Both the position numbers and the translations under genes were made by a program. Below are positions 2,658 to 13,297 of a DNA stretch of 64,000 nucleotides, in pieces; the first letter of the stretch is position 1, and every line of letters starts with the position of its first letter. Origin of the DNA: Candidatus Colwellbacteria bacterium (GTDB lineage: Bacteria; Patescibacteriota; Minisyncoccia; UBA6257; Colwellbacteraceae); the NCBI GenBank assembly GCA_016176525.1, contig JACOWZ010000003.1, positions 537,925 through 601,924 of the forward strand. The letters are read 5' to 3'. Below the pieces are notes generated by a model. The model searched no databases, had not been told where the DNA came from, and saw only the letters and a list, made by a program, of their open reading frames with translations.

Positions 2658-3176
2658 TTAGCGCACCCATTTGCAACCTGTTCTATTTTGTTTTGCTTGC
2701 TGTTCTGCTAGGGCAATTTCTTGCCTATATTTTGTGTTTGGTTGGTAGAATAGGGCTATAGCCATGCCTTCCTCGACAAGTTTTAGGTTAATATTCGCAT
2801 CCCCCACAAAAATGTAGCGCAAAAACCTGCCATATTGGTCGCTGTCTTCAATATCGCTTTCCAAGTGCACTTGCTTCATTAAAACCAATTCTTCTAGTCT
2901 AGTTTTTGCCGCATCGTAGCATATATGCCCGCGCTCGTCTGCATCAATGCCAAGCAGGCGCACCGAGTTGCCACTCTCTATAACAACAGTGTCGCCGTCT
3001 ATAACTTTGGTCACAACCGCTTCACTACTGATTTCGTTTATTGCTTCTTTATCAGTCTCACCGCCAAGGTAAATTTGTAAATTAGCATTGCCGGAGATAA
3101 CAATAGCCACACTGATTAAGAGCCCTACAATAACAATGCCGATTAATATTTGATACCTCTCAAAAAAGCTTTTCAC
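2658..3176 (-). CDS. Membrane-anchored thermonuclease (SNase-like) family protein
   Basis: N-terminal TM helix followed by an SNc-type motif LLGIDADERG (compare RLxGIDAPE). The length of 172 aa fits staphylococcal-nuclease-like proteins. Confidence 0.6.
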   Translation of the reverse strand: MKSFFERYQILIGIVIVGLLISVAIVISGNANLQIYLGGETDKEAINEISSEAVVTKVIDGDTVVIESGNSVRLLGIDADERGHICYDAAKTRLEELVLMKQVHLESDIEDSDQYGRFLRYIFVGDANINLKLVEEGMAIALFYQPNTKYRQEIALAEQQAKQNRTGCKWVR

Positions 3177-4204
3177 TCGTCGTCCTCGTCGTCGTCACTT
3201 TCTTCCTCATTTTCATCTTCGTCATCCTCATCCTCATCGTCCTTATCTTCATCATCCTTATCTTCGTCGTCTTCATCTTCTGCTTCGTCAATAATATTCT
3301 TAACCTTCTCGAACGAATCATCTGCTTCTTTTGCCAAACGTTCGGCTTCTTCAAAATCGCCGGCATTAAAGGCAGTTTTGGCCTGGGCTATTAAACTATC
3401 GAATTCCATAAATGAATCTGCTGCAAGCTCAACGCCTTCGGCTTTTGCTTCTTCAATCAACTCCTGCTTTTCATCTTGAGCCTCGCTAATCTCTTCTTCT
3501 GCGTCACTCCTTGCGTCTTCCTCGTCCATCTCCATGTCTTCTTCTAAATCATCATCATCAAGATCATCCTCCAGCTTATCTTTTTCGGCTTCAAGCGCAT
3601 CTATTGTTTTATCTTTTAACTCTTCGGCGGCATCTTTTTCTGCTTCAATTGCTTCTAATTCTGCTTTAAGTGTTTCTATAAGTTCGGCATCTCCTGCCTC
3701 TTTCGCGGCTTTAATTTGCTCTTTTAACTCGTCTTTTTGGATGTGGAACTCATCAAGTGCGGTTTCAAATACAGCCTTTGCTTCTTCTCTTTTTTGGTGA
3801 AACTCTTGGTTAATCTCATTTGCAAACTCGCTAACATCTTTGCCTTTTTGCTTCTCTTTTTCAACAATATCTGCAGCGCGCTTTAGGTGAACTTCGAAGC
3901 GCTCTTTTGCTTGGTCTAACCCTTTGGCATTTGCACCCTTGGTCTCTATCATCAGCTTTACCTCGGCCACGCGTTCGGCAGCAAACTTAATTTGCAGCTT
4001 TGCCTTGCCTTCGGCGCCGAATGTAAAAAACTCTCTAACTGATTCGGCCCACTTATCTAAGAAATAAAACAGGCTCTCCGGTGTTAGCCCAGCAGCCGGC
4101 AATTCTAAGTCGGCTTCTTGTGCGTAAACCGCAGATGCGCCCCCGACCAGGGCCAAACCGACCAAAACCGAAATAAGTATTTTTTTCATGTTTATATTAT
4201 ACAC
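3173..4204 (-). CDS. Secreted coiled-coil protein with a poly-acidic (D/E-rich) C-terminal tail
   Basis: Signal-peptide-like N-terminus MKKILISVLVGLALVGGASAVYAQ. The body is a long K/E-rich heptad-like region. The C-terminus is DEDDEDKDDEDKDDEDEDDEDENEEESDDDEDDE. The antisense poly-Ser ORF at 3150-3479 is an artefact of this repeat. Confidence 0.5.
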   Translation of the reverse strand: MYNINMKKILISVLVGLALVGGASAVYAQEADLELPAAGLTPESLFYFLDKWAESVREFFTFGAEGKAKLQIKFAAERVAEVKLMIETKGANAKGLDQAKERFEVHLKRAADIVEKEKQKGKDVSEFANEINQEFHQKREEAKAVFETALDEFHIQKDELKEQIKAAKEAGDAELIETLKAELEAIEAEKDAAEELKDKTIDALEAEKDKLEDDLDDDDLEEDMEMDEEDARSDAEEEISEAQDEKQELIEEAKAEGVELAADSFMEFDSLIAQAKTAFNAGDFEEAERLAKEADDSFEKVKNIIDEAEDEDDEDKDDEDKDDEDEDDEDENEEESDDDEDDE

Positions 4205-4866: not shown

Positions 4867-5411
4867 CCGCACCCTAGCGGTCTTTTTTTATTCTCTTTTT
4901 CTAACTTTTCTAAAATAGTTTTCAAATTGCCAGATATAAAAACAAGATTGTCAGGTTCTTTAAATCCCAGCTTCTTGTACCAATTTAGTGAATAAGAATC
5001 CTTAAAGGTTGTTGCTTCGAAATATTTTGCATCATATTTATCTATAGCCTCTTGATATAGCGTCTTGGATAACTGCACTCCTACTCCCTTACCCTGATAA
5101 TCAGGCGCTACAAATATTTCGCCATCGTACAGACAATTACCGTTCCACCACGGTTTTACTGCTGTAAAAAATGCTCCAACTATTTTGCCATCATCTTCAG
5201 CTAGAAAATCTAATTTATTCTTTCTATCAAACCAGTATTTTAATAATTTGTGTGCTGATTTTTCAGTCCACTTCTCGCCAACATCATGTCTTTTTGGGTC
5301 ATAGACCTCACAATATAACTTTGCTAACAAATTTAAGTCACCTTCTTTTACGCGTCTTATTGATACTTTATTATTCTTCATGCGGACTTTTTTGCTATTT
5401 CTTCTCGCCAC
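4800..5411 (-). CDS. GNAT-family N-acetyltransferase
   Basis: Motif A-like QGKGVGVQLSKTLYQEA and the general layout of a GNAT fold. 203 aa. Confidence 0.55.
   Translation of the reverse strand: MARRNSKKVRMKNNKVSIRRVKEGDLNLLAKLYCEVYDPKRHDVGEKWTEKSAHKLLKYWFDRKNKLDFLAEDDGKIVGAFFTAVKPWWNGNCLYDGEIFVAPDYQGKGVGVQLSKTLYQEAIDKYDAKYFEATTFKDSYSLNWYKKLGFKEPDNLVFISGNLKTILEKLEKENKKRPLGCGQVLYRCRVTTFFSKYAAEVRQ
4865..4890 (+). terminator. Rho-independent terminator. Hairpin GACCGCACCCTAGCGGTC followed by a T7 run.
   Basis: Perfect 6-bp GC-rich stem and a T-run immediately after the stop of the 4270-4866 ORF. Confidence 0.55.
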
Positions 5412-5935
5412 TTGATTAATTTGTATTGATCAACAAGTTCAATCGGCTTATCTTCTGAAAACCTTTCTGCCTCTAGAGTGAATTTGTTAGTAGTAATAAA
5501 GTATCCTTTTCCGTTTGTAATCTTACCAGCAATCGCGCCATAAAAATCTCTCATGGCTCCAACCCCAACCTCTTGAATAATAAATTTCTTGCACTGTATA
5601 TAGTGCTTAATCCCGTCTTTTTCTGCTATAACATCTATTCCTCCATCATAAGGGCCTCCGACTGATTCGGTTCTAAATCCCATTTCTCTAAACATCCAAG
5701 CAATATAATCTTCAAATTCCTTAGGTGAGTATCTACGGATCTTATTGATATAGTCCTTACCTGAAAGCCATTTCTCGTTTTTCGCAAATCTTCCTTGCTT
5801 TAATAAATTAGGCAAAACACTGTATATAAAGATGCGGGAGGCAATTACAATTAATAAAATTATCCAAATCGGCCAAAGTTTCCATAATAACACTAATACA
5901 TCTTTCAATATCTGTAACCAAAAATTATCTAGCAT
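5378..5935 (-). CDS. Membrane-anchored Mrr-cat restriction endonuclease-like protein
   Basis: N-terminal TM segment. Then DGGIDVIAEK...IQCKKF, which matches the Mrr_cat (PD-(D/E)xK) catalytic signature D-x-D...QCK. Confidence 0.55.
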   Translation of the reverse strand: MLDNFWLQILKDVLVLLWKLWPIWIILLIVIASRIFIYSVLPNLLKQGRFAKNEKWLSGKDYINKIRRYSPKEFEDYIAWMFREMGFRTESVGGPYDGGIDVIAEKDGIKHYIQCKKFIIQEVGVGAMRDFYGAIAGKITNGKGYFITTNKFTLEAERFSEDKPIELVDQYKLIKWREEIAKKSA

Positions 5936-6038: not shown

Positions 6039-6755
6039 TTAAATGTTTTTAATATAATGAATGATTACTGATATAAACCTAGATAATTTTGATGCTGAAT
6101 CAAAGAATAATGTTATCAAAGAAATAAAAACAATAATGACAATGTTTAATAATTGACTTGGTTGTAGACCAAAAACAGCAGTCACCATAAAATAGGACGC
6201 TAAAACAAAAAGAAACAGTGAAATTTCTCCTGAATAATCCATAGCTTTCTTAAACCTTGATTTTCTTTCTTCGGATAATTTCTTGTTTTCTTCCCTCAAC
6301 TTATCAGTGCTAGCTAAGTTACTTAGTCGTTGGAAGTATTCTTTTGTAGCCTCATAAGAGTTATCAAATTTCTCTCCTCTTCCTATTCTTCCAAAATATT
6401 CGTCCAAAAGATTCAGTCTTTCTTCTAGGGCTAAATTGTATTCATCTTGCATTTTTTGTAGGTTGTTAGATTCGTTATCTAACTTCTCTCTTACAATTAG
6501 CAAATTAAAAATTATTACTATAATATTCAAAACTAACCCTATGAAAAAATAATTATTGTTTGGAATATCAATAATCGACGATAACCCCAGCACTGCTCCA
6601 GAAAGTATCGTTACATGCTTGAAAAATCCCCATTTTTGCTCAGCTATTTTAATCTGAGTATCCTTAAAATCTTTATTCAAATCATTACGTAACCGAATAG
6701 CATCTTTTCTTTCTTTCGCTATTAGATCTATAAAGCGTTGCTGTTCTAAATTCAT
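6039..6755 (-). CDS. Hypothetical protein with a coiled-coil N-terminal half and a C-terminal multi-TM region
   Basis: 238 aa. Residues 1-150 are K/E/L-rich. The C-terminal 80 aa are hydrophobic. I recognise no catalytic motif. Confidence 0.35.
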   Translation of the reverse strand: MNLEQQRFIDLIAKERKDAIRLRNDLNKDFKDTQIKIAEQKWGFFKHVTILSGAVLGLSSIIDIPNNNYFFIGLVLNIIVIIFNLLIVREKLDNESNNLQKMQDEYNLALEERLNLLDEYFGRIGRGEKFDNSYEATKEYFQRLSNLASTDKLREENKKLSEERKSRFKKAMDYSGEISLFLFVLASYFMVTAVFGLQPSQLLNIVIIVFISLITLFFDSASKLSRFISVIIHYIKNI

Positions 6756-6818: not shown

Positions 6819-9512
6819 TTATTTTTTATCAAAAACCCTCACGATTTCGTCAAAGTTTCTCAGTTTATCCCTTTCCCATTCCTCTTGCTTTATATAAAGG
6901 GCTTTATAGACAACTCGACTTTGCCGATCGTTTACATCCTCACACCACTTTTGTAATCTTTCAAACTTTAATTTATCGTCATCTTCTTCTCGTCCTTTTG
7001 TTTCAATAATGTAAACGGTTTTCTCATTTTTCTTCACAAAGAAATCAGGGTAGTAGGTGGCTATAAATCCCTCTGAATTTTTATACTCAATTCTAAGCGC
7101 GTTTGCTTCTTTGTTTTGGAAATTCTTTGCAAAAGAAATAACATCATCACAATTTTCAAGAAAATCAGAAAATACCAGCTCAAAATCACTGTCGCCGACA
7201 ATCTTATTGAAGACTGATTTTTTCGGTATTAAGTATGATTTGTCATTCACGACAAAGGGACGCGCCTCGCTGATTTTTATATAATTCTTTATCTCCGTAT
7301 CTCCCTTGTCTTCAACTGTAAGCTCGTTAATAGCTTTCTTGAAAGAATCTTTTATGAGCCTAATATACTCAACCTCTGACAAGTTTCTTAAAACATTGAG
7401 GTCTGACAAATTCACAGGGCTGTCAAACATATTATTCTGCACAAACTCTCTTACCTTGCCGAACAAAATGTCGTAGCAACCGAACAGACGCAGCTCCCGC
7501 ATTATTGCTTGCGCAAAAAATCCGACAACGCTTTGATAATCTGGCTCAATCTCACCGGAAAGTATTGTCGTGTGATGCGTTTTCTCATCCACCACATCTT
7601 TAAAAACAATTTCTCTCTTTTCTTCTTCAGAGAAAGTCTTTACTTTGACTTTTTTATTTCCAAATTTTGAAACATCTAACTCGGCAAGGTTTTTATACTC
7701 TCTCTGAATCCTCGGAGACATCACCGGAATCTCAATATCAAGTTTCTCAATATCTTTTTTCGGATTATCTTTATCAACCTCAATAACCATCGGGGCTATT
7801 GGCTTCGCACCTGTCCCCATCGCTTTCTTCTCAAGAATAACGCCCTCGCCTTTGATTGACTCAACAAAGTCCATAAAAGCGGGTGTTCCCACAACACTTA
7901 CATACTCCTCAACATCATCTCTGCCGAAAAACATTCTGCGTAGTCCTCGCCCAAGGGTTTGTTCTGGGAGAATTTTTGAATCGGCGGCATAAGGTCGTAA
8001 GCCAACGATAGTCGTTACATTTTTTACATCCCAACCCTCTTTCAACATCATCACGGAAATGATCACCTTGAACGGACTTTCCCAACTATCAATTTCATTT
8101 GCTTGCTTTCTAAGTAAATCTAATTCTTCTTTGCTTTTTCCAGAAACGCTTTCAGAAATTTCACCACTCTTATTTGTGTGAATGGTCAAAACCGCGCCTT
8201 TCAAACTTTTAAAACTCGTCTCAATGTATTCCGCCACTTCATCGCAGTTTTTTGTATCATCCGTCATTATGAAAAGAATGGACTTTTTACCCATCGGCTT
8301 TAATACATCGTATGTTTTCTGCCATTCCTCAATACCAAGATTTATATAATCTCTGTATTTTTCGCTGAATAGCGTACTCTGATTTTCTTTCAATTTTCCT
8401 CGGCTCGCCGCGTCCGGCGCAACAGGATTTTTTACAACTCTTTGATGTATCGCTTCAACAAGCGGATAATCAGAAATCGTCTGCACAAAAATAGAACCGT
8501 CATTCTTTTTTGGGGTAGCAGTAAGGTCAATCTGCAAAGATAATCCAGTCCCTTTCTGTTTCAGTCGATTGTCTATGTCGGTAATTGATTTAACCCAAGC
8601 AGACTTATCATCGTGCAAGTGATGGGCTTCGTCATTGAGCACGATAAGCTCGTCTATGTCTCTTACAATCACTCCGAGATCAACCTTAGAATCGCTCGTT
8701 TTAGTAACCGGCTTATCGCCTAAGAAATAGCGGGAAGTATCCTCATCATCCGCGCTTGCGTCTCTTATATCACTTTCAAAAACTCTATGGATATTGGTCA
8801 AAAATATATTTCCTGTGTCGGAAACATTGCGTAAATCATCCTGCAAATGCAAAGTCATTTGAAAATCGTCCTGCCAGTTTTGCCCATGATATCCGTTGTC
8901 AGGCAAAACAGGATCGCTAAAGAAGATTTTTAACCCCTCAAAATCATTCTTGATTCTTTCAAAAACAATGACATTCGGAGTTATCAAAAGAAAGTTCTTT
9001 GCCAAACTTGAATCTTCTTCATATTTTTTATGAAAATATGCCCATGCGATTACCAAACTCATCACTTTAGTCTTGCCCGCGCCTGTCGCCATCTTAATAA
9101 CAAAGCGAAGCCATTCCTCGGTAAACATCTGCGGACTTAACACGCCAGTCGTGTTGTAACGAATAAGATCGTATTTATCTTTTACTTTTGCCACCTCGTA
9201 AAGCCACACGACTGTTTCTAGCGCCTCCCTCTGTGCGAAATAGTATTTGAATTGAGTTGATGCTCCATGCTGGTCATATAAAATATGTTTTTCCCTAAAC
9301 CACCAATTCAAAAGCGACTTAGAAGTATCACTTGCTCCCTCATAATTTTTATCTCGCCATTCTTTTACTTTTTCACGGAGTCCTGCAACAAGAGGCGGTA
9401 GGAGTTTTTGAATAGCTCCTTTTTCCCGCAAATCCTCGTCAGCAGGAAACCATCTGATTTGAGGGTCAAGTATCGCATATGGGTCTTTGGGAAAATCCTT
9501 GTGTAGGGCCAT
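6819..9512 (-). CDS. res: Type III restriction enzyme, Res subunit (SF2 helicase plus C-terminal PD-(D/E)xK nuclease)
   Basis: Walker A MATGAGKTKVMSLVIAWAY. DEAH box LVLNDEAHHL. Helicase motif VI-like QTLGRGLRR. C-terminal nuclease motif YYPDFFV...VYIIETKG. 897 aa. Confidence 0.8.
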   Translation of the reverse strand: MALHKDFPKDPYAILDPQIRWFPADEDLREKGAIQKLLPPLVAGLREKVKEWRDKNYEGASDTSKSLLNWWFREKHILYDQHGASTQFKYYFAQREALETVVWLYEVAKVKDKYDLIRYNTTGVLSPQMFTEEWLRFVIKMATGAGKTKVMSLVIAWAYFHKKYEEDSSLAKNFLLITPNVIVFERIKNDFEGLKIFFSDPVLPDNGYHGQNWQDDFQMTLHLQDDLRNVSDTGNIFLTNIHRVFESDIRDASADDEDTSRYFLGDKPVTKTSDSKVDLGVIVRDIDELIVLNDEAHHLHDDKSAWVKSITDIDNRLKQKGTGLSLQIDLTATPKKNDGSIFVQTISDYPLVEAIHQRVVKNPVAPDAASRGKLKENQSTLFSEKYRDYINLGIEEWQKTYDVLKPMGKKSILFIMTDDTKNCDEVAEYIETSFKSLKGAVLTIHTNKSGEISESVSGKSKEELDLLRKQANEIDSWESPFKVIISVMMLKEGWDVKNVTTIVGLRPYAADSKILPEQTLGRGLRRMFFGRDDVEEYVSVVGTPAFMDFVESIKGEGVILEKKAMGTGAKPIAPMVIEVDKDNPKKDIEKLDIEIPVMSPRIQREYKNLAELDVSKFGNKKVKVKTFSEEEKREIVFKDVVDEKTHHTTILSGEIEPDYQSVVGFFAQAIMRELRLFGCYDILFGKVREFVQNNMFDSPVNLSDLNVLRNLSEVEYIRLIKDSFKKAINELTVEDKGDTEIKNYIKISEARPFVVNDKSYLIPKKSVFNKIVGDSDFELVFSDFLENCDDVISFAKNFQNKEANALRIEYKNSEGFIATYYPDFFVKKNEKTVYIIETKGREEDDDKLKFERLQKWCEDVNDRQSRVVYKALYIKQEEWERDKLRNFDEIVRVFDKK

Positions 9513-9517
9513 AAAAT

Positions 9518-10138
9518 TTATATTTCAGAACTCTTTTGCGGTTGAGAATTTGGTTGTTGCAATTTTGACTGCACTGGATTATTTATTAATAAAATATCTA
9601 AATCTTTTGTATCTTTTAAATAAGCTCCATCAATAATATCTGTGACCAATCCGAATTTCTCAGCTTCCTCAGAAGATAGTACAGCTCCACCATGCACTTC
9701 TTTATTTACGATACTTTTCTTCTTTCCCGTTACTTTTGAAATTACCTCGGAATAATCATCAGTAATCCTTTGAATCAATTTTGCCATTTCGCTTAGTTTA
9801 GTCGGGTTAAATTGTCCATTAAGTGTTGCAATTGCTTCATGAAGTACAAAACGACAACTTGGTGCCGCAATTCTTCTTTGACCGGCGCAGAACATCATTA
9901 CAGCGGCGCTATCAACGTTCCCCATTCCAATTGTCGTTTTTGAGATATTGATTTGCCTAAGAAAATTGTATGCTAAAAGACCGTGATCAGATGATCCACC
10001 CGAACTTGATATCTGGAGAATTATCTCATTTATAGGTTTTTCTGGATTTTGTTGAGCAAGCTTAATAGTAATAAATTTTATTAGATCATTTACTGAACCC
10101 TCGGAAACATTTGCATAAAAATTAATTAATAATTTCAT
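9518..10138 (-). CDS. ClpP-like (S14/S49 clan SK) serine protease family protein
   Basis: ISSSGGSSDHGLLAYNFL resembles the ClpP NSPGG region. NVDSAAVMMFCAG resembles the ClpP active-site Ser context AASMGAFLL. RFVLHEA resembles the ClpP His region. A C-terminal Asp region SSEEAEKFGLVTDII is present. 206 aa, with no TM helix. Confidence 0.55.
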   Translation of the reverse strand: MKLLINFYANVSEGSVNDLIKFITIKLAQQNPEKPINEIILQISSSGGSSDHGLLAYNFLRQINISKTTIGMGNVDSAAVMMFCAGQRRIAAPSCRFVLHEAIATLNGQFNPTKLSEMAKLIQRITDDYSEVISKVTGKKKSIVNKEVHGGAVLSSEEAEKFGLVTDIIDGAYLKDTKDLDILLINNPVQSKLQQPNSQPQKSSEI

Positions 10139-10487
10139 AATTTTCTTCTAAAAGTTTTTTTATTATTTCTAATTGTTCCTTGTTTTGTTCTGATAACTCT
10201 TGAACTTGCCTAAGAAATTCCTCATTTATTTTTTGTGTTGTTTCAACAGATTCTATTTTCCCAGAATATTCGCTGTATGCGGCATTGTTATATCTCATTT
10301 GATCAAGGAACAAGCCAATCACCGAAATAATAACTGCAACCAGAGAAACAAGAACCGATGCCACCACCGCAATAAGAATGTTGTCAATTTTATCAAATCG
10401 ACTCTTTACTTCCGGAGGCATCCCAGTTACAGGAGCATCTCTTTCTGGAATTGTAATTAAGGGTTTTTCCATATCAATATATTCCAA
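10122..10487 (-). CDS. Small single-pass membrane protein with a C-terminal coiled coil
   Basis: The central hydrophobic helix is ILIAVVASVLVSLVAVIISVIGLFL. The C-terminus is Q/E/L-rich. It overlaps the next gene by 17 bp and the previous gene by 14 bp, so it is tightly coupled to both. Confidence 0.35.
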   Translation of the reverse strand: MEYIDMEKPLITIPERDAPVTGMPPEVKSRFDKIDNILIAVVASVLVSLVAVIISVIGLFLDQMRYNNAAYSEYSGKIESVETTQKINEEFLRQVQELSEQNKEQLEIIKKLLEENYEIIN

Positions 10488-10686
10488 TTATTACGTGGAC
10501 ATTATTTTCCTCTCGTATCTCTAAATCTCTACCAATATATTTGGATAAATCTATACCGCCGAAAGAAACATTTTTGAATCTAGCTCCAGGTCCGAACTGA
10601 ACACCACCGATTCTTATAATCTTTTCCTTCGATTCGATACTACCATCAGCATTTACATTGAAAACCTCGTGAAAATTGATGCGCAT
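10474..10686 (-). CDS. Small hypothetical protein of 70 aa
   Basis: ORF packed with a 4-bp gap after the mod stop and a 14-bp overlap with the next gene. I recognise no motif. Confidence 0.3.
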   Translation of the reverse strand: MRINFHEVFNVNADGSIESKEKIIRIGGVQFGPGARFKNVSFGGIDLSKYIGRDLEIREENNVHVIIGIY

Positions 10687-10690
10687 ATTT

Positions 10691-12853
10691 TTATATTTTG
10701 ACCTCTATCACCCTAGTGGTGTCATTCCCGAAAATATCGACGACTTTTACGGCAATTTTGTGTTTGCCTTTTGTAGCAACTTTTGGAGAAGTAACGAGGT
10801 CAAGATTTCTGTTCTTTTTGGTACGGAAACTCTGCCACTCGTTGTCAAAAATATAATCGCCCGTCCATACTTCTTTTTCCTCGCCACCTTCCACAACCTT
10901 GATGATTTCTTTTCTGCTTGCAAAATCAAAATCAACTGCCCAATAGTCAATCCAGTCGCTCCATTTTTTAGTCAAAATTTCTTTTGAAATTTCTTCAGTT
11001 TTCTTATCTTTTGAGATTTTTACCACCTGACCATCTTCTACCACAACTTTAGATCTACCGGGGCGCAATGCCTCGGCAATTTCGCCTGAATTGTCCTGAT
11101 TGTAGAAAACAGAAAAATTTATCAGTTCAATAGAAATTTCTTTGTCATTCCCTCGTCCTTTCACAATCGGTTTCACTTCAATAAACGCGACATCATAGAA
11201 CTTCACTTGACCCTTTTCTACCACCTTTCTGTCAAAAACTTCTCGCGGAATTATCCTAAAGGCGATATCAATGCCTTGATCTTTGTACTCTGTAAAATCA
11301 AGTCCCATTTCATAATCAAACCCAAGAACATCAACTTTAGTGATTCCTTTTTCTTTACACTCTTTTACGATGTCCTGCACGAATTTAGAAGAAACGGGAG
11401 TATTGATGGGTCCCACCGCCACAAGGCGATCTCTTTTCTTGCCGATAACATTCACGAAAGACTCTACTGGCTCGGCTTTGTATGCAGAGAGAATAAGTTT
11501 TACAAATTCCTTTTCTTTCCTTTCGGCTTGTCTGGCTTTTTCTTCCGCTCGCAAATCATCATTTGTCGCGAGGAAATTTTCTCTTTCATATCTTCCAACA
11601 TTCAAAATCTCAAAAGCTCTAAAGTCCCCCCCCTCTTTTTTTAGTTCTCTTTGCACGTCAATCATTCTTTTTCGTGAAGTATGTATGCCGAATTTACCCA
11701 AATCTGACCCAATCCATCTTCTCTGTAGTTTCTCTGCTACCTCTAATGTAGTCCCGGAGCCACAGAAAAAATCTGCTACTAAGTCATTTGGTTCGGTTGA
11801 AGTCTCAATTATTCTCCTTAACAATCCGAATGGTTTTTGTGTTGGGTAACCAAGATACTCGGATGAACCACTAATGAGCGGTTTCGTATCGTCTGCGTCC
11901 CATACATCTCTTACATAGACTTCGGCGTAGTGCTGATTAAATAGTTTATCTTTCAATCTATCCGGAAGTGCTTTTCTACTTGCAATACACTCTTCTATTA
12001 TTTTAATGTCTTTTTCTGTAAGATCGTTAATTTTTGCTTCATTTAATTTTGTGTCAATGAATGGTTTCTCGTATTTAATTTTTTCTTTCGTAGCTTTGAA
12101 AATATAGCCGTCTTTATTTTTTGCATAGTAGAAGATCGTATCGTGTTTTCGTGCATAGAATTTTTTACCAACTCCTTGAATACGATAACCCCACGTGATT
12201 TCATTTAATAGATTATCTTTACCAAAAATTTCATCTAGTACCAATCTCATATACGCATTAACTCTATAATCACAATGCACATAGATACTTCCATTGTCAG
12301 CAAGGAGTCCGTGCATTAGTCTTAGTCGTTCATAAATCATCGTGACAAAACTATCAGCACCCTTACCCCAAGTGTCGCGGTAGGCGATTTCTTCTATAAC
12401 TGACGGCTTTTTTGTAAAACTTTCTTCGTCCTCGCCATCTCCGATTTTAATGTCCATTGAAAAATCCGCGCCGACATCGAAGGGCGGGTCAATATAAATC
12501 AATTTCAAACCGCCCTGCGCCTCTATTTCTTTGCGAAGCGGACCGTTCTTAAGAGAGGAAAGAATCAGCTTATTGTCTCCCCAAATCAATTTATTCGTCC
12601 AGCCGGTAATTTGCCTTCCCGTTGTATCCCAAAGAGTGCCGGAATCTCCAAATTCTCCTTGTCGTGGTTCATCTATTTGTTCAATAACTTGAAAAGGCAA
12701 GACAACATTCGTTACCTCATTTGTCTTTCCGTTCCAAAGAAGCTCAACCTCTCTGTCATCGTCAAACAACAAAAACCGATATTTCTCCGGAAGCGGTTTA
12801 CCCACTTCCAAGTATTTCACAATATCTCGTTTTTCGTTATCTGTTAATTTCAT
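10691..12853 (-). CDS. mod: Beta-class N6-adenine/N4-cytosine DNA methyltransferase (Type III Mod-like) with a roughly 300-aa C-terminal extension
   Basis: Motif IV DPPF (LIYIDPPFDVG) precedes motif I FFCGSGTT, which is the beta-class order. The N-terminal LIWGDNKLILSSLKNG is typical of Type III Mod. The ORF track extends to a GTG at 13045 inside a perfect palindrome. The ATG at 12851-12853 (MKLTDNEKRDI...) is the more plausible start. Confidence 0.75.
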   Translation of the reverse strand: MKLTDNEKRDIVKYLEVGKPLPEKYRFLLFDDDREVELLWNGKTNEVTNVVLPFQVIEQIDEPRQGEFGDSGTLWDTTGRQITGWTNKLIWGDNKLILSSLKNGPLRKEIEAQGGLKLIYIDPPFDVGADFSMDIKIGDGEDEESFTKKPSVIEEIAYRDTWGKGADSFVTMIYERLRLMHGLLADNGSIYVHCDYRVNAYMRLVLDEIFGKDNLLNEITWGYRIQGVGKKFYARKHDTIFYYAKNKDGYIFKATKEKIKYEKPFIDTKLNEAKINDLTEKDIKIIEECIASRKALPDRLKDKLFNQHYAEVYVRDVWDADDTKPLISGSSEYLGYPTQKPFGLLRRIIETSTEPNDLVADFFCGSGTTLEVAEKLQRRWIGSDLGKFGIHTSRKRMIDVQRELKKEGGDFRAFEILNVGRYERENFLATNDDLRAEEKARQAERKEKEFVKLILSAYKAEPVESFVNVIGKKRDRLVAVGPINTPVSSKFVQDIVKECKEKGITKVDVLGFDYEMGLDFTEYKDQGIDIAFRIIPREVFDRKVVEKGQVKFYDVAFIEVKPIVKGRGNDKEISIELINFSVFYNQDNSGEIAEALRPGRSKVVVEDGQVVKISKDKKTEEISKEILTKKWSDWIDYWAVDFDFASRKEIIKVVEGGEEKEVWTGDYIFDNEWQSFRTKKNRNLDLVTSPKVATKGKHKIAVKVVDIFGNDTTRVIEVKI

Positions 12854-13010
12854 CTGTTTTTTATAAGAATCAGACTTATTATACACTCTTTTCTGTGATA
12901 AAATATACTTAAGAAGTATGCGAATATTCCCTAATAAATCATTTATACTAATACTCTCTGTTGCGATATTACTTGTGCAAATTTCGATTCTGGGGTTGAC
13001 AATGAAAGAT

Positions 13011-13048
13011 GGAGTGGCTAAAATCTCTGTAGAGATTTTAGCCACTCC
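13011..13048. promoter_or_regulatory. Perfect 38-bp palindrome GGAGTGGCTAAAATCTCTGTAGAGATTTTAGCCACTCC upstream of mod
   Basis: 18-bp arms around a 2-bp centre, seen directly in the sequence. It lies about 160 bp upstream of the preferred mod ATG. No T-run follows on either strand, so it is more operator-like than terminator-like. Confidence 0.4.
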
Positions 13049-13257
13049 ATCTAACTAACGCGTATCTTATTTCTCCCAATCTTTGATTATTAGCGATTTG
13101 CCGCGTTTGGTGACCACCACTTTCTGCCGCTCTTGCCATTTTAGATTCTTAACATGCTCAATTGGGAGGGTAACGTAATATGTGTGCTGGTTTTTCTGGA
13201 TATTTCGCACATTTTTATTTTTTAGTTGCCTTCTTACCATATGCAAATTCTAACACA

Positions 13258-13297
13258 AGAAAACACGTTTTAAAACTAGTTTTAAAACGTGTTTTCT
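13258..13297 (-). terminator. 40-bp perfect palindrome (20-bp arms) immediately downstream of the trhO stop
   Basis: AGAAAACACGTTTTAAAACT/AGTTTTAAAACGTGTTTTCT. It sits 3 bp after the trhO stop on the transcribed strand. It is U-rich, so a terminator is likely, though it is unusually long. Confidence 0.4.

Follow-up and report, generated by a model that had tools for sequence, protein, structure and literature searches.

A putative cargo slot between mod and res in a Type III restriction-modification family, occupied by a ClpP-like peptidase cassette in Candidatus Colwellbacteria

We examined a 64,000-nucleotide (nt) stretch of DNA from Candidatus Colwellbacteria (contig JACOWZ010000003.1, forward-strand positions 537,925 to 601,924; hereafter the window), which carries a Type III restriction-modification (R-M) operon whose mod and res genes are separated by three small genes. 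These genes encode a 70-amino-acid (aa) protein (p70), a membrane protein and a ClpP-like peptidase, and are referred to together as the cassette. Comparison with relatives of the operon indicates that the mod-res junction is a general and exchangeable cargo slot, precise to the open reading frame (ORF), that has not been described previously. From the sequence comparisons we lean towards the view that the cassette is an autonomous accessory module, probably directed against phage, which would be co-transcribed with the R-M genes and would not be a subunit or regulator of Res or Mod. Patescibacteria make up a large share of bacterial diversity, are mostly without CRISPR and uncultured, and have a poorly known immune repertoire; one of their most abundant restriction systems would double as a carrier for swappable accessory genes.

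Variable cargo between mod and res

The original prediction had described five consecutive ORFs on the minus strand at 6819-13045, and all five were found again at those coordinates, in that order and on that strand (Table 1). The outer two had been assigned to Mod, a beta-class methyltransferase (MTase) with DPPF before FxGxG, and to Res, a DEAH helicase with a C-terminal PD-(D/E)xK nuclease, and both assignments hold. The Mod translation matches PF01555 (1.2e-40) and the PADLOC model MTase_III (3.3e-106), and its DPPF precedes FCGSG, as the beta-class order requires. Res matches PF04851 (2e-17) and PADLOC REase_III (1.6e-22), carries NDEAHH and a C-terminal PD...ETK motif, and is encoded downstream of mod on the same strand. 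Its nuclease region is sub-threshold for the Pfam model RE_endonuc (18.2 bits, cutoff 23.4), and its NF046055 score of 273 bits lies under the cutoff of 800. Type III enzymes hemimethylate an asymmetric site, and cleavage by them needs ATP and two inversely oriented unmodified sites. By its domain matches the mod-res pair appears to be an ordinary Type III R-M operon, and the family to which it belongs is highly abundant among Patescibacteria. At least 8000 candidate homologues of Res were scored, with an identity of 85-95% in every one of the 120 best-listed clusters.

What lies between the two genes differs among relatives (loci used for comparison carry the prefix L). The slot is empty in L035, whose Res is 94.5% identical, and in L038/39, where the mod stop codon is followed by one nucleotide and then the res ATG; the statement that Mod and Res are normally adjacent is thereby borne out for this family. 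In other loci the slot holds a 177-aa protein and a Bro-N protein (L029), a 570-aa AAA_15/SMC_N ATPase (L030/31), an SLFN_AlbA_2/HATPase_c_4 protein, of the Schlafen ATPase type (L032-34), cargo that includes a DUF3800 protein (L005), or an unknown protein of 451 aa (L036/37) or 156 aa (L040). PADLOC places several cargo genes among known or candidate defence genes: it recognizes a Fic protein in the slot of L027 as SoFic (2e-103), the Bro-N protein of L029 as PDC-S13 (2.9e-108) and the ATPase of L030 as Old/AriA/GajA-like (2.5e-24). When the window is set beside L027, L029, L030, L032 and L035, identity amounts to 93-96% for Res and to 87-94% for the 150 C-terminal residues of Mod, and among these near-identical backbones the slot ranges in length from 1 to 2628 nt and its content is unrelated. 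All cargo lies on the same strand as mod and res. At the 5' junction the cargo ATG is at most 8 nt from the mod stop, with a 4-nt overlap in some loci, and at the 3' junction 1-5 nt separate the cargo stop from the res ATG in most loci, with L032 as an exception at about 90 nt. The trio of the window had been called an insert of a kind not known elsewhere. That it is extra cargo agrees with the near-identical relatives, in which the slot is empty or filled with unrelated genes; its uniqueness does not survive the comparison, as the arrangement is one state of a general cargo slot.

Genes nested within Hma, BREX, DISARM and Type I R-M systems share the orientation of their host system in 96.7% of cases, and embedding predicts a defence function (10.1101/2024.01.29.577857). 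That survey (Payne et al. 2024) covered these four system types in RefSeq, not Type III R-M or Patescibacteria, and a text search found no Clp protein or peptidase among its candidates (10.1101/2024.01.29.577857). Like the embedded defence genes PrrC in Type I hsd and BrxU in BREX (Payne et al. 2024, 10.1101/2024.01.29.577857), the cargo described here is nested, lies on the same strand and varies between similar systems, and it includes SoFic, PDC-S13 and OLD-like ATPases. Unlike the systems described, insertion in this family is ORF-precise at a single junction, and the trio matches no PADLOC model. The slot would extend 'guilt by embedding' to Type III R-M, and the mod-res interval would be an easy place to look in metagenomes for new defence genes.

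Loci encoding the ClpP-like peptidase were retrieved from genomes and metagenomes by protease patterns and by exact-protein look-ups, and 21 informative loci remained after removal of duplicates. The peptidase gene occupies the slot in 12 of the 21, lies at a remnant of res in one and is found elsewhere in eight, counts that include loci selected for their closeness to the window. Nine of the slot-borne copies sit in the same Res family (the window, L004, L005, L011, L026, L027, L028, L047 and L048), and three occupy the same position in a second Type III-like backbone (L001, L008 and L010), which pairs a 551-aa MTase, divided between two ORFs in L001 and L008, with a ResIII protein of 777-847 aa. 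The Mod of this second backbone is about 29% identical to that of the window, and BLAST links no Res between the two. The peptidase is the sole cargo in L004 and L028; it shares the slot with the DUF3800 protein in L005, with a 424-aa protein that has a weak HEPN_Apea match in L011, with 86-aa and three-helix membrane proteins in L026, and with SoFic in L027.

The peptidase search returned 91 clusters at 90% identity, only eight of which, apart from that of the window, are at least 77% identical to the window protein. Set against the 8000 or more Res candidates, this number implies that most close relatives of the window R-M system are without the peptidase. Across Saccharibacteria, Peribacteria, WWE3, Wildermuthbacteria and Colwellbacteria, distant classes of the candidate phyla radiation (CPR), the peptidase shows identities of 52-79%, which together with its sporadic distribution suggests horizontal transfer. 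The eight loci outside R-M are L003, L006, L007, L013, L017, L022, L024 and L025. Defence-looking neighbours of the peptidase gene include a DpnI-like protein (L022), a PD-(D/E)xK protein (L007), an AAA_15 protein (L006) and a Bro-N protein (L009).

Several of the compared loci show interrupted or decayed genes. In L008 (8293-9996 and 10621-13187) the MTase is split into 121 and 443 aa and Res into 777 and 78 aa, and in L001 (1-1572) the MTase is split into 77 and 443 aa; L010 keeps single ORFs of 551 and 847 aa. The split ORFs of L001 and L008 may be frameshifts, products of phase variation or assembly errors. In L002 (5236-5310) and L009 only 25 residues of the N-terminus of Res (84% identical) remain behind the ClpP-like gene, accompanied in L009 by the Bro-N protein and a Mod fragment; these are decayed R-M loci in which the protease gene survives intact. 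A 250-aa PD-(D/E)xK (PDDEXK_1/Cas4-like) protein with a C-terminal Cys cluster is encoded just downstream of Res in L005 (13308-14060) and L026 (8731-9297) and near the protease in the non-R-M locus L007 (8052-8801).

A ClpP-fold peptidase and a conserved gene pair

The 206-aa protein matches PF00574 at 2.6e-23 (83.3 bits, above the Pfam gathering threshold of 20.2). It falls far under every NCBIfam ClpP equivalog cutoff, including those of the best-scoring model, PRK12553 (83.8 bits, cutoff 228), and of TIGR00493 clpP (59.1 bits, cutoff 308.6). Its AlphaFold model has a predicted local distance difference test score (pLDDT) of 89 and aligns in Foldseek with many solved ClpP chains at template modelling (TM) scores of 0.72-0.78 (E 4.6e-16 and similar); the best matches in the Protein Data Bank are all genuine ClpP subunits, at 20-26% identity. 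In the sequence alignment, for which the E. coli ClpP reference was entered by hand, residue 1 of the peptidase corresponds to residue 38 of the E. coli precursor. The model starts at strand 1, and about the first 23 residues of mature ClpP, comprising helix A and the axial loops by which the pore is gated, are missing. The C-terminus carries an extra strand (INNP) and a Q/P-rich tail. No hydrophobic segment is present in the protein. ClpP itself forms a heptameric or tetradecameric chamber and cooperates with an AAA+ unfoldase; at the window locus no AAA+ unfoldase gene is adjacent. Relative to ClpP (S14), then, the peptidase has the same core fold and carries the nucleophile Ser and general-base His in the same motifs, but it is only about 22-27% identical, lacks the N-terminal elements, has its own C-terminal extension and bears Gly in place of Asp.

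This last difference concerns the catalytic residues. Both S77 (VDSAA) and H100 (LHEA) are invariant among 30 aligned family members and align with the catalytic Ser and His of E. coli ClpP, in keeping with the Ser/His/Asp context originally proposed. The Asp of that proposal, in LVTDII, could not be retained: the segment aligns with LVDSIL of E. coli, its D varies across the 30 sequences, and the position of E. coli Asp171 is taken by the Gly of HGGAVLS, which is nearly invariant in the family. We therefore rejected LVTDII as the source of a catalytic Asp, and the Ser-His-Asp triad is incomplete. Sequence and model fit best with a truncated peptidase of the ClpP fold that carries a Ser/His pair. 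Listeria ClpP1 has Asn at the Asp position and shows low activity on its own, and among the Foldseek matches of the peptidase is what we take to be the N165D mutant of this protein. By analogy, loss of the Asp may not render the peptidase inactive, and its activity is perhaps conditional.

Ratios of non-synonymous to synonymous substitution (dN/dS) are 0.02-0.14 for the peptidase gene, 0.06-0.17 for p70 and 0.10-0.44 for the membrane protein, rough values given saturated dS that indicate purifying selection on each. In a neighbour-joining tree without support values, slot-borne copies of the peptidase are not confined to one shallow clade. When the whole window was searched by tblastn with E. 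coli ClpP, the ClpP-like gene was not reported, even though a pairwise BLASTP comparison of the two proteins yields E 7e-16; a negative tblastn result for divergent ClpP is untrustworthy in these AT-rich genomes and says nothing about a housekeeping ClpP.

The model of p70 is a small all-beta domain (pLDDT 87.5) for which no significant structural neighbour was found, and its homologues form 31 other clusters at 57-89% identity. In the membrane protein, read as the 121-aa ORF, a single hydrophobic helix precedes an acidic tail with a heptad-like pattern. The family of this protein comprises 70 clusters at 50% identity, with members in L027, L041, L047 and L048, and its hallmark is a set of invariant juxtamembrane residues, D57, N62, Y66 and Y69, in LDQMRYNNAAYKEYS (D-x4-N-x3-Y-x2-Y). 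Matches to DUF6377 (19 bits, threshold 36.7) and SLATT_6 (16 bits, threshold 100) were sub-threshold and were not used.

The original prediction had proposed a search for the trio in other genomes, beside R-M or other defence genes. The order Mod-p70-membrane protein-protease-Res recurs in at least two loci besides the window, L047 and L048, both confirmed in the DNA, and is also indicated on one further contig; the pair and the protease, for their part, also occur outside R-M. In L041-46 (at least 25 contigs, including Parcubacteria GW2011_GWA2_33_14), p70 and the membrane protein are followed by a 247-aa Pol-beta nucleotidyltransferase, and this cassette lies outside any R-M system, 316 nt after ftsX. 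A homologue of the membrane protein precedes the protease in L027, where an unrelated 125-aa protein takes the place of p70. As judged from these loci, the constant unit seems to be the p70-membrane pair, its genes 1 nt apart, followed by an enzyme that is either the ClpP-like peptidase or the nucleotidyltransferase. Compared with the window, L047 has a Res that is 88% and a protease that is 64% identical, whereas the values for L048 are 72% and 84%. These discordant divergences point to separate histories of cassette and R-M backbone, with exchange of the cassette.

Two ideas about these genes were discarded. Its members had looked like one-off passengers when judged from 26 loci retrieved with protease patterns, none of which had a homologue of p70 or the membrane protein. 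Such pattern-based scans miss many members of the protease family, and a homologue search with p70 itself brought up L047 and L048, which have the trio, and L041-46, which have the pair. An obligatory association of the protease with a membrane-protein neighbour was rejected as well; such a neighbour is present in several loci, but these proteins are non-homologous, and their frequency is that expected by chance in small CPR proteomes.

Possible functions of the cassette

Three interpretations had been offered for the insert: a defence or abortive-infection module riding on the R-M system, a regulator of Res/Mod stoichiometry, and a new composite defence system. The first has the best support, since SoFic, PDC-S13 and Old-like genes occupy this slot in near-identical R-M backbones; a functionally fused composite is evident neither at the locus nor in its relatives. 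As an accessory module, the cassette would act as a second layer beside the R-M system on a shared transcript. That either a peptidase or a nucleotidyltransferase can follow an unchanging p70-membrane pair suggests a shared role for the pair at the membrane, as sensor or as effector. The third gene would then be an enzymatic switch, and the Pol-beta nucleotidyltransferase would fill the role of the peptidase in the sister cassette. In the most speculative step of this scheme, the peptidase would target the membrane pair or act together with it, for instance through cleavage of p70 or of the membrane protein, and this would lead to a membrane-directed abortive response.

Precedents for a proteolytic switch are the ClpP-dependent degradation of antitoxins in toxin-antitoxin-type defences and the cleavage of a neighbouring stomatin by NfeD-type ClpP-fold proteases; as far as the features could be compared, the cassette belongs to neither family. 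In the latter (NfeD/STOPP-stomatin), a ClpP-fold Ser peptidase is encoded beside a membrane protein with a coiled-coil tail, which is its substrate. The arrangement in the window is similar; however, the membrane protein has no SPFH/stomatin domain (no Pfam match), and the peptidase is without a membrane anchor and has a Ser/His pair, with H100 invariant, instead of a Ser/Lys dyad, which places it outside that family.

Several observations weigh against the view of the cassette as an anti-phage accessory module. The eight loci outside R-M mean that the protease family is not exclusively linked to defence, and some of its neighbours look like housekeeping genes: DnaK in L017, the ArsP permease in L003 and HAD, HD and glyoxalase proteins in L025. 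The inclusion of L027, L028, L047 and L048 as close relatives means that the locus counts are not an unbiased frequency. None of p70, the membrane protein and the protease matched a PADLOC model. The membrane protein has an ambiguous topology, and at other loci the protease does not have a membrane-protein neighbour more often than expected in these genomes.

Were the peptidase instead to serve the R-M enzyme, it might alleviate restriction by degrading Res or adjusting the Res:Mod ratio whenever unmodified self sites arise or the operon reaches a new host. Degradation of HsdR, the corresponding target in Type I enzymes, by ClpXP in restriction alleviation is well established (PMC4231737; PMC12707154) and likewise links a Clp-type protease to a helicase-nuclease subunit, and the protease gene lies immediately upstream of res in the window, L004, L005, L028, L047, L048, L001, L008 and L010. 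However, ClpXP is a host housekeeping protease, ATP-dependent and encoded elsewhere, whereas the gene inside this operon encodes a truncated ClpP-like protein; it has no unfoldase gene nearby, and its product is without the loops through which ClpP engages ClpX/ClpA. Other cargo intervenes between protease and res in L027, L011 and L026. Res proteins that are 93-96% identical occur with an empty slot or unrelated cargo, which argues against the need for a dedicated protease and against co-adaptation, and the protease itself is found in non-R-M loci, as is the pair, there with the nucleotidyltransferase. These points make restriction alleviation improbable, and they disfavour the stoichiometry regulator of the original prediction as well. 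A guard of the PrrC type, in which the Mod/Res complex holds the cassette inactive until a phage anti-restriction protein disables the enzyme and thereby fires it, appears quite improbable. PrrC, which is nested almost exclusively in Type I R-M systems and is set off by Stp, an R-M inhibitor (10.1101/2024.01.29.577857), provides a precedent, and the repeated presence of the protease between mod and res on two distinct Type III backbones would fit. But life without R-M, for the protease in the eight loci named above and for the pair in L041-46, argues against obligatory coupling, and the R-M proteins show no cassette-specific changes.

The neighbours of the protease outside R-M (DnaK, a permease and metabolic genes) could also mean that the peptidase, with or without the pair, is a non-defence passenger that landed in a permissive, well-expressed slot and works in housekeeping or scavenging; proteostasis, the processing of membrane proteins and, in an auxotrophic symbiont, the salvage of amino acids are examples of what it might do. 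Nutrient acquisition has been put forward, as a speculation in a preprint on CPR bacteria, as a purpose of restriction enzymes and proteases (10.64898/2026.07.13.738296). We consider this account unlikely in view of the contrast between 91 sporadic protease clusters and the thousands of Res candidates, the signs of horizontal transfer across distant CPR classes, the location of 12 of the 21 informative loci in one specific intergenic site, and the several slot-mates that are bona fide defence genes. Origin from a prophage, with the peptidase as a ClpP-type prohead (head-maturation) protease among phage genes, was rejected as extremely improbable. The protein does have weak head-maturation matches (PHROG 94 at 5.7e-13; NF045542 at 44.9 bits), but the NF045542 score is far from the cutoff of 120 and cellular ClpP models score higher. 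Wide occurrence of the trio outside defence, for example with capsid genes in a prophage, had been named as grounds for abandoning the defence hypothesis; no capsid, portal or terminase gene, nor any other structural phage gene, is a neighbour in any of the loci, and no relatives of the protease, p70 or the membrane protein were found among IMG/VR viral contigs. Absence of the trio from all homologous Type III systems, combined with loss of the catalytic residues of the protease, had been named likewise, and homologous Type III loci do carry the protease.

A bolder form of the favoured accessory-module reading is that the junction is an integron-like exchange site for anti-phage genes and the cassette a new protease-based abortive system with an interchangeable enzyme, functionally coupled to R-M as a second defensive line; we hold this to be doubtful. 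Searches of the literature for Clp proteases in R-M operons or in the defences of Patescibacteria gave no such report. The comparison flags a ClpP-fold peptidase family and its conserved two-gene partner as candidates that are in no current defence database and, if the favoured reading is true, would represent a protease-based defence module with an exchangeable enzymatic part.

Gene starts and neighbouring genes

Table 1. Features of the operon and its surroundings in the window
Feature	Coordinates	Strand	Remarks
Extended -10 promoter-like element TGTATAAT	12878..12885	-	About 25 nt upstream of probable mod start; read directly, putative function
mod, Type III beta-class N6/N4 DNA methyltransferase	10691..12853	-	Probably 720 aa; PF01555, PADLOC MTase_III
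p70, conserved 70-aa all-beta protein	10474..10686	-	First cassette gene; fold without known match
Membrane protein	10122..10472	-	116 aa from ATG 10472 (121 aa if TTG 10487); single-pass helix and C-terminal coiled-coil-like tail
ClpP-like Ser/His peptidase	9518..10138	-	206 aa; PF00574, AF2, Foldseek
res, Type III restriction subunit	6819..9512	-	897 aa; SF2 DEAH helicase and C-terminal PD-(D/E)xK motif
Perfect palindrome, AGAAAACACGTTTTAAAACT/AGTTTTAAAACGTGTTTTCT	13258..13297		20+20 nt, no spacer
Basic ORF, 59 aa	13067..13246	-	No family match
Perfect inverted repeat	13007..13052		22+22 nt, 2-nt loop
Mrr_cat nuclease (185 aa) and three-helix membrane protein (238 aa)	5378..5935 and 6039..6755	-	Directly downstream of res
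343-aa protein	3173..4204	-	N-terminal signal-like helix

The spacings of 4, 14, 17 and 5 bp given earlier are arithmetically right for the original ORF limits, but the 14-bp overlap is probably a 1-nt gap. The membrane-protein gene most likely starts at ATG 10472, because homologues begin MEKPL or MEEPL, 1 nt past the p70 stop. The mod ORF can be extended upstream to GTG 13045; its start is most likely ATG 12853, since all Mod relatives (695-728 aa) begin aligning at residue 65 of the long ORF, the TGTATAAT element lies at 12885-12878, and a perfect hairpin, the inverted repeat of Table 1, falls inside the extension and argues that the latter is non-coding. The promoter consensus scan did not list the TGTATAAT element, which has no -35 match. 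The five genes are on one strand and tightly spaced, as had been claimed, and from this spacing a single transcript from mod to res is a plausible reading; inside the operon the consensus scan gave only weak terminator-like matches. GC content is 0.33-0.35 in the cargo genes and 0.39 in mod and res.

The inverted repeat lies between the 59-aa ORF and the probable mod promoter and start, and could be a terminator of the upstream gene or an operator. The ORF itself may encode a controller protein of the R-M operon; other small genes occupy its position in sister operons (HTH_3 in L048, DUF7695 in L029 and a 74-aa protein in L036). The palindrome lies just after a rhodanese-like gene, and immediately downstream of the palindrome come a TG-extended TAGAAT and the small ORF with its ATG, an arrangement that would give a near-leaderless transcript.

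On the other side of the operon, the membrane protein downstream of res has a coiled-coil middle, and the nuclease (PF04471 at 7.5e-26; PADLOC mREase_IV at 2e-13, PDC-S02) has an N-terminal hydrophobic helix. Both genes are low in GC (0.30-0.35) and are not conserved beside Res in relatives; with the R-M genes they make up a small defence island. Sister R-M operons likewise have further defence genes at their flanks: in L032 (745-2320), AbiEi/AbiEii genes with an inserted GIY-YIG gene lie upstream of mod, and in L036 (1-2229) genes for an OLD-family ATPase-TOPRIM protein and a PIF1-like helicase lie upstream. The 343-aa protein encoded further downstream in the window has an extremely acidic, low-complexity, D/E-rich body and tail.

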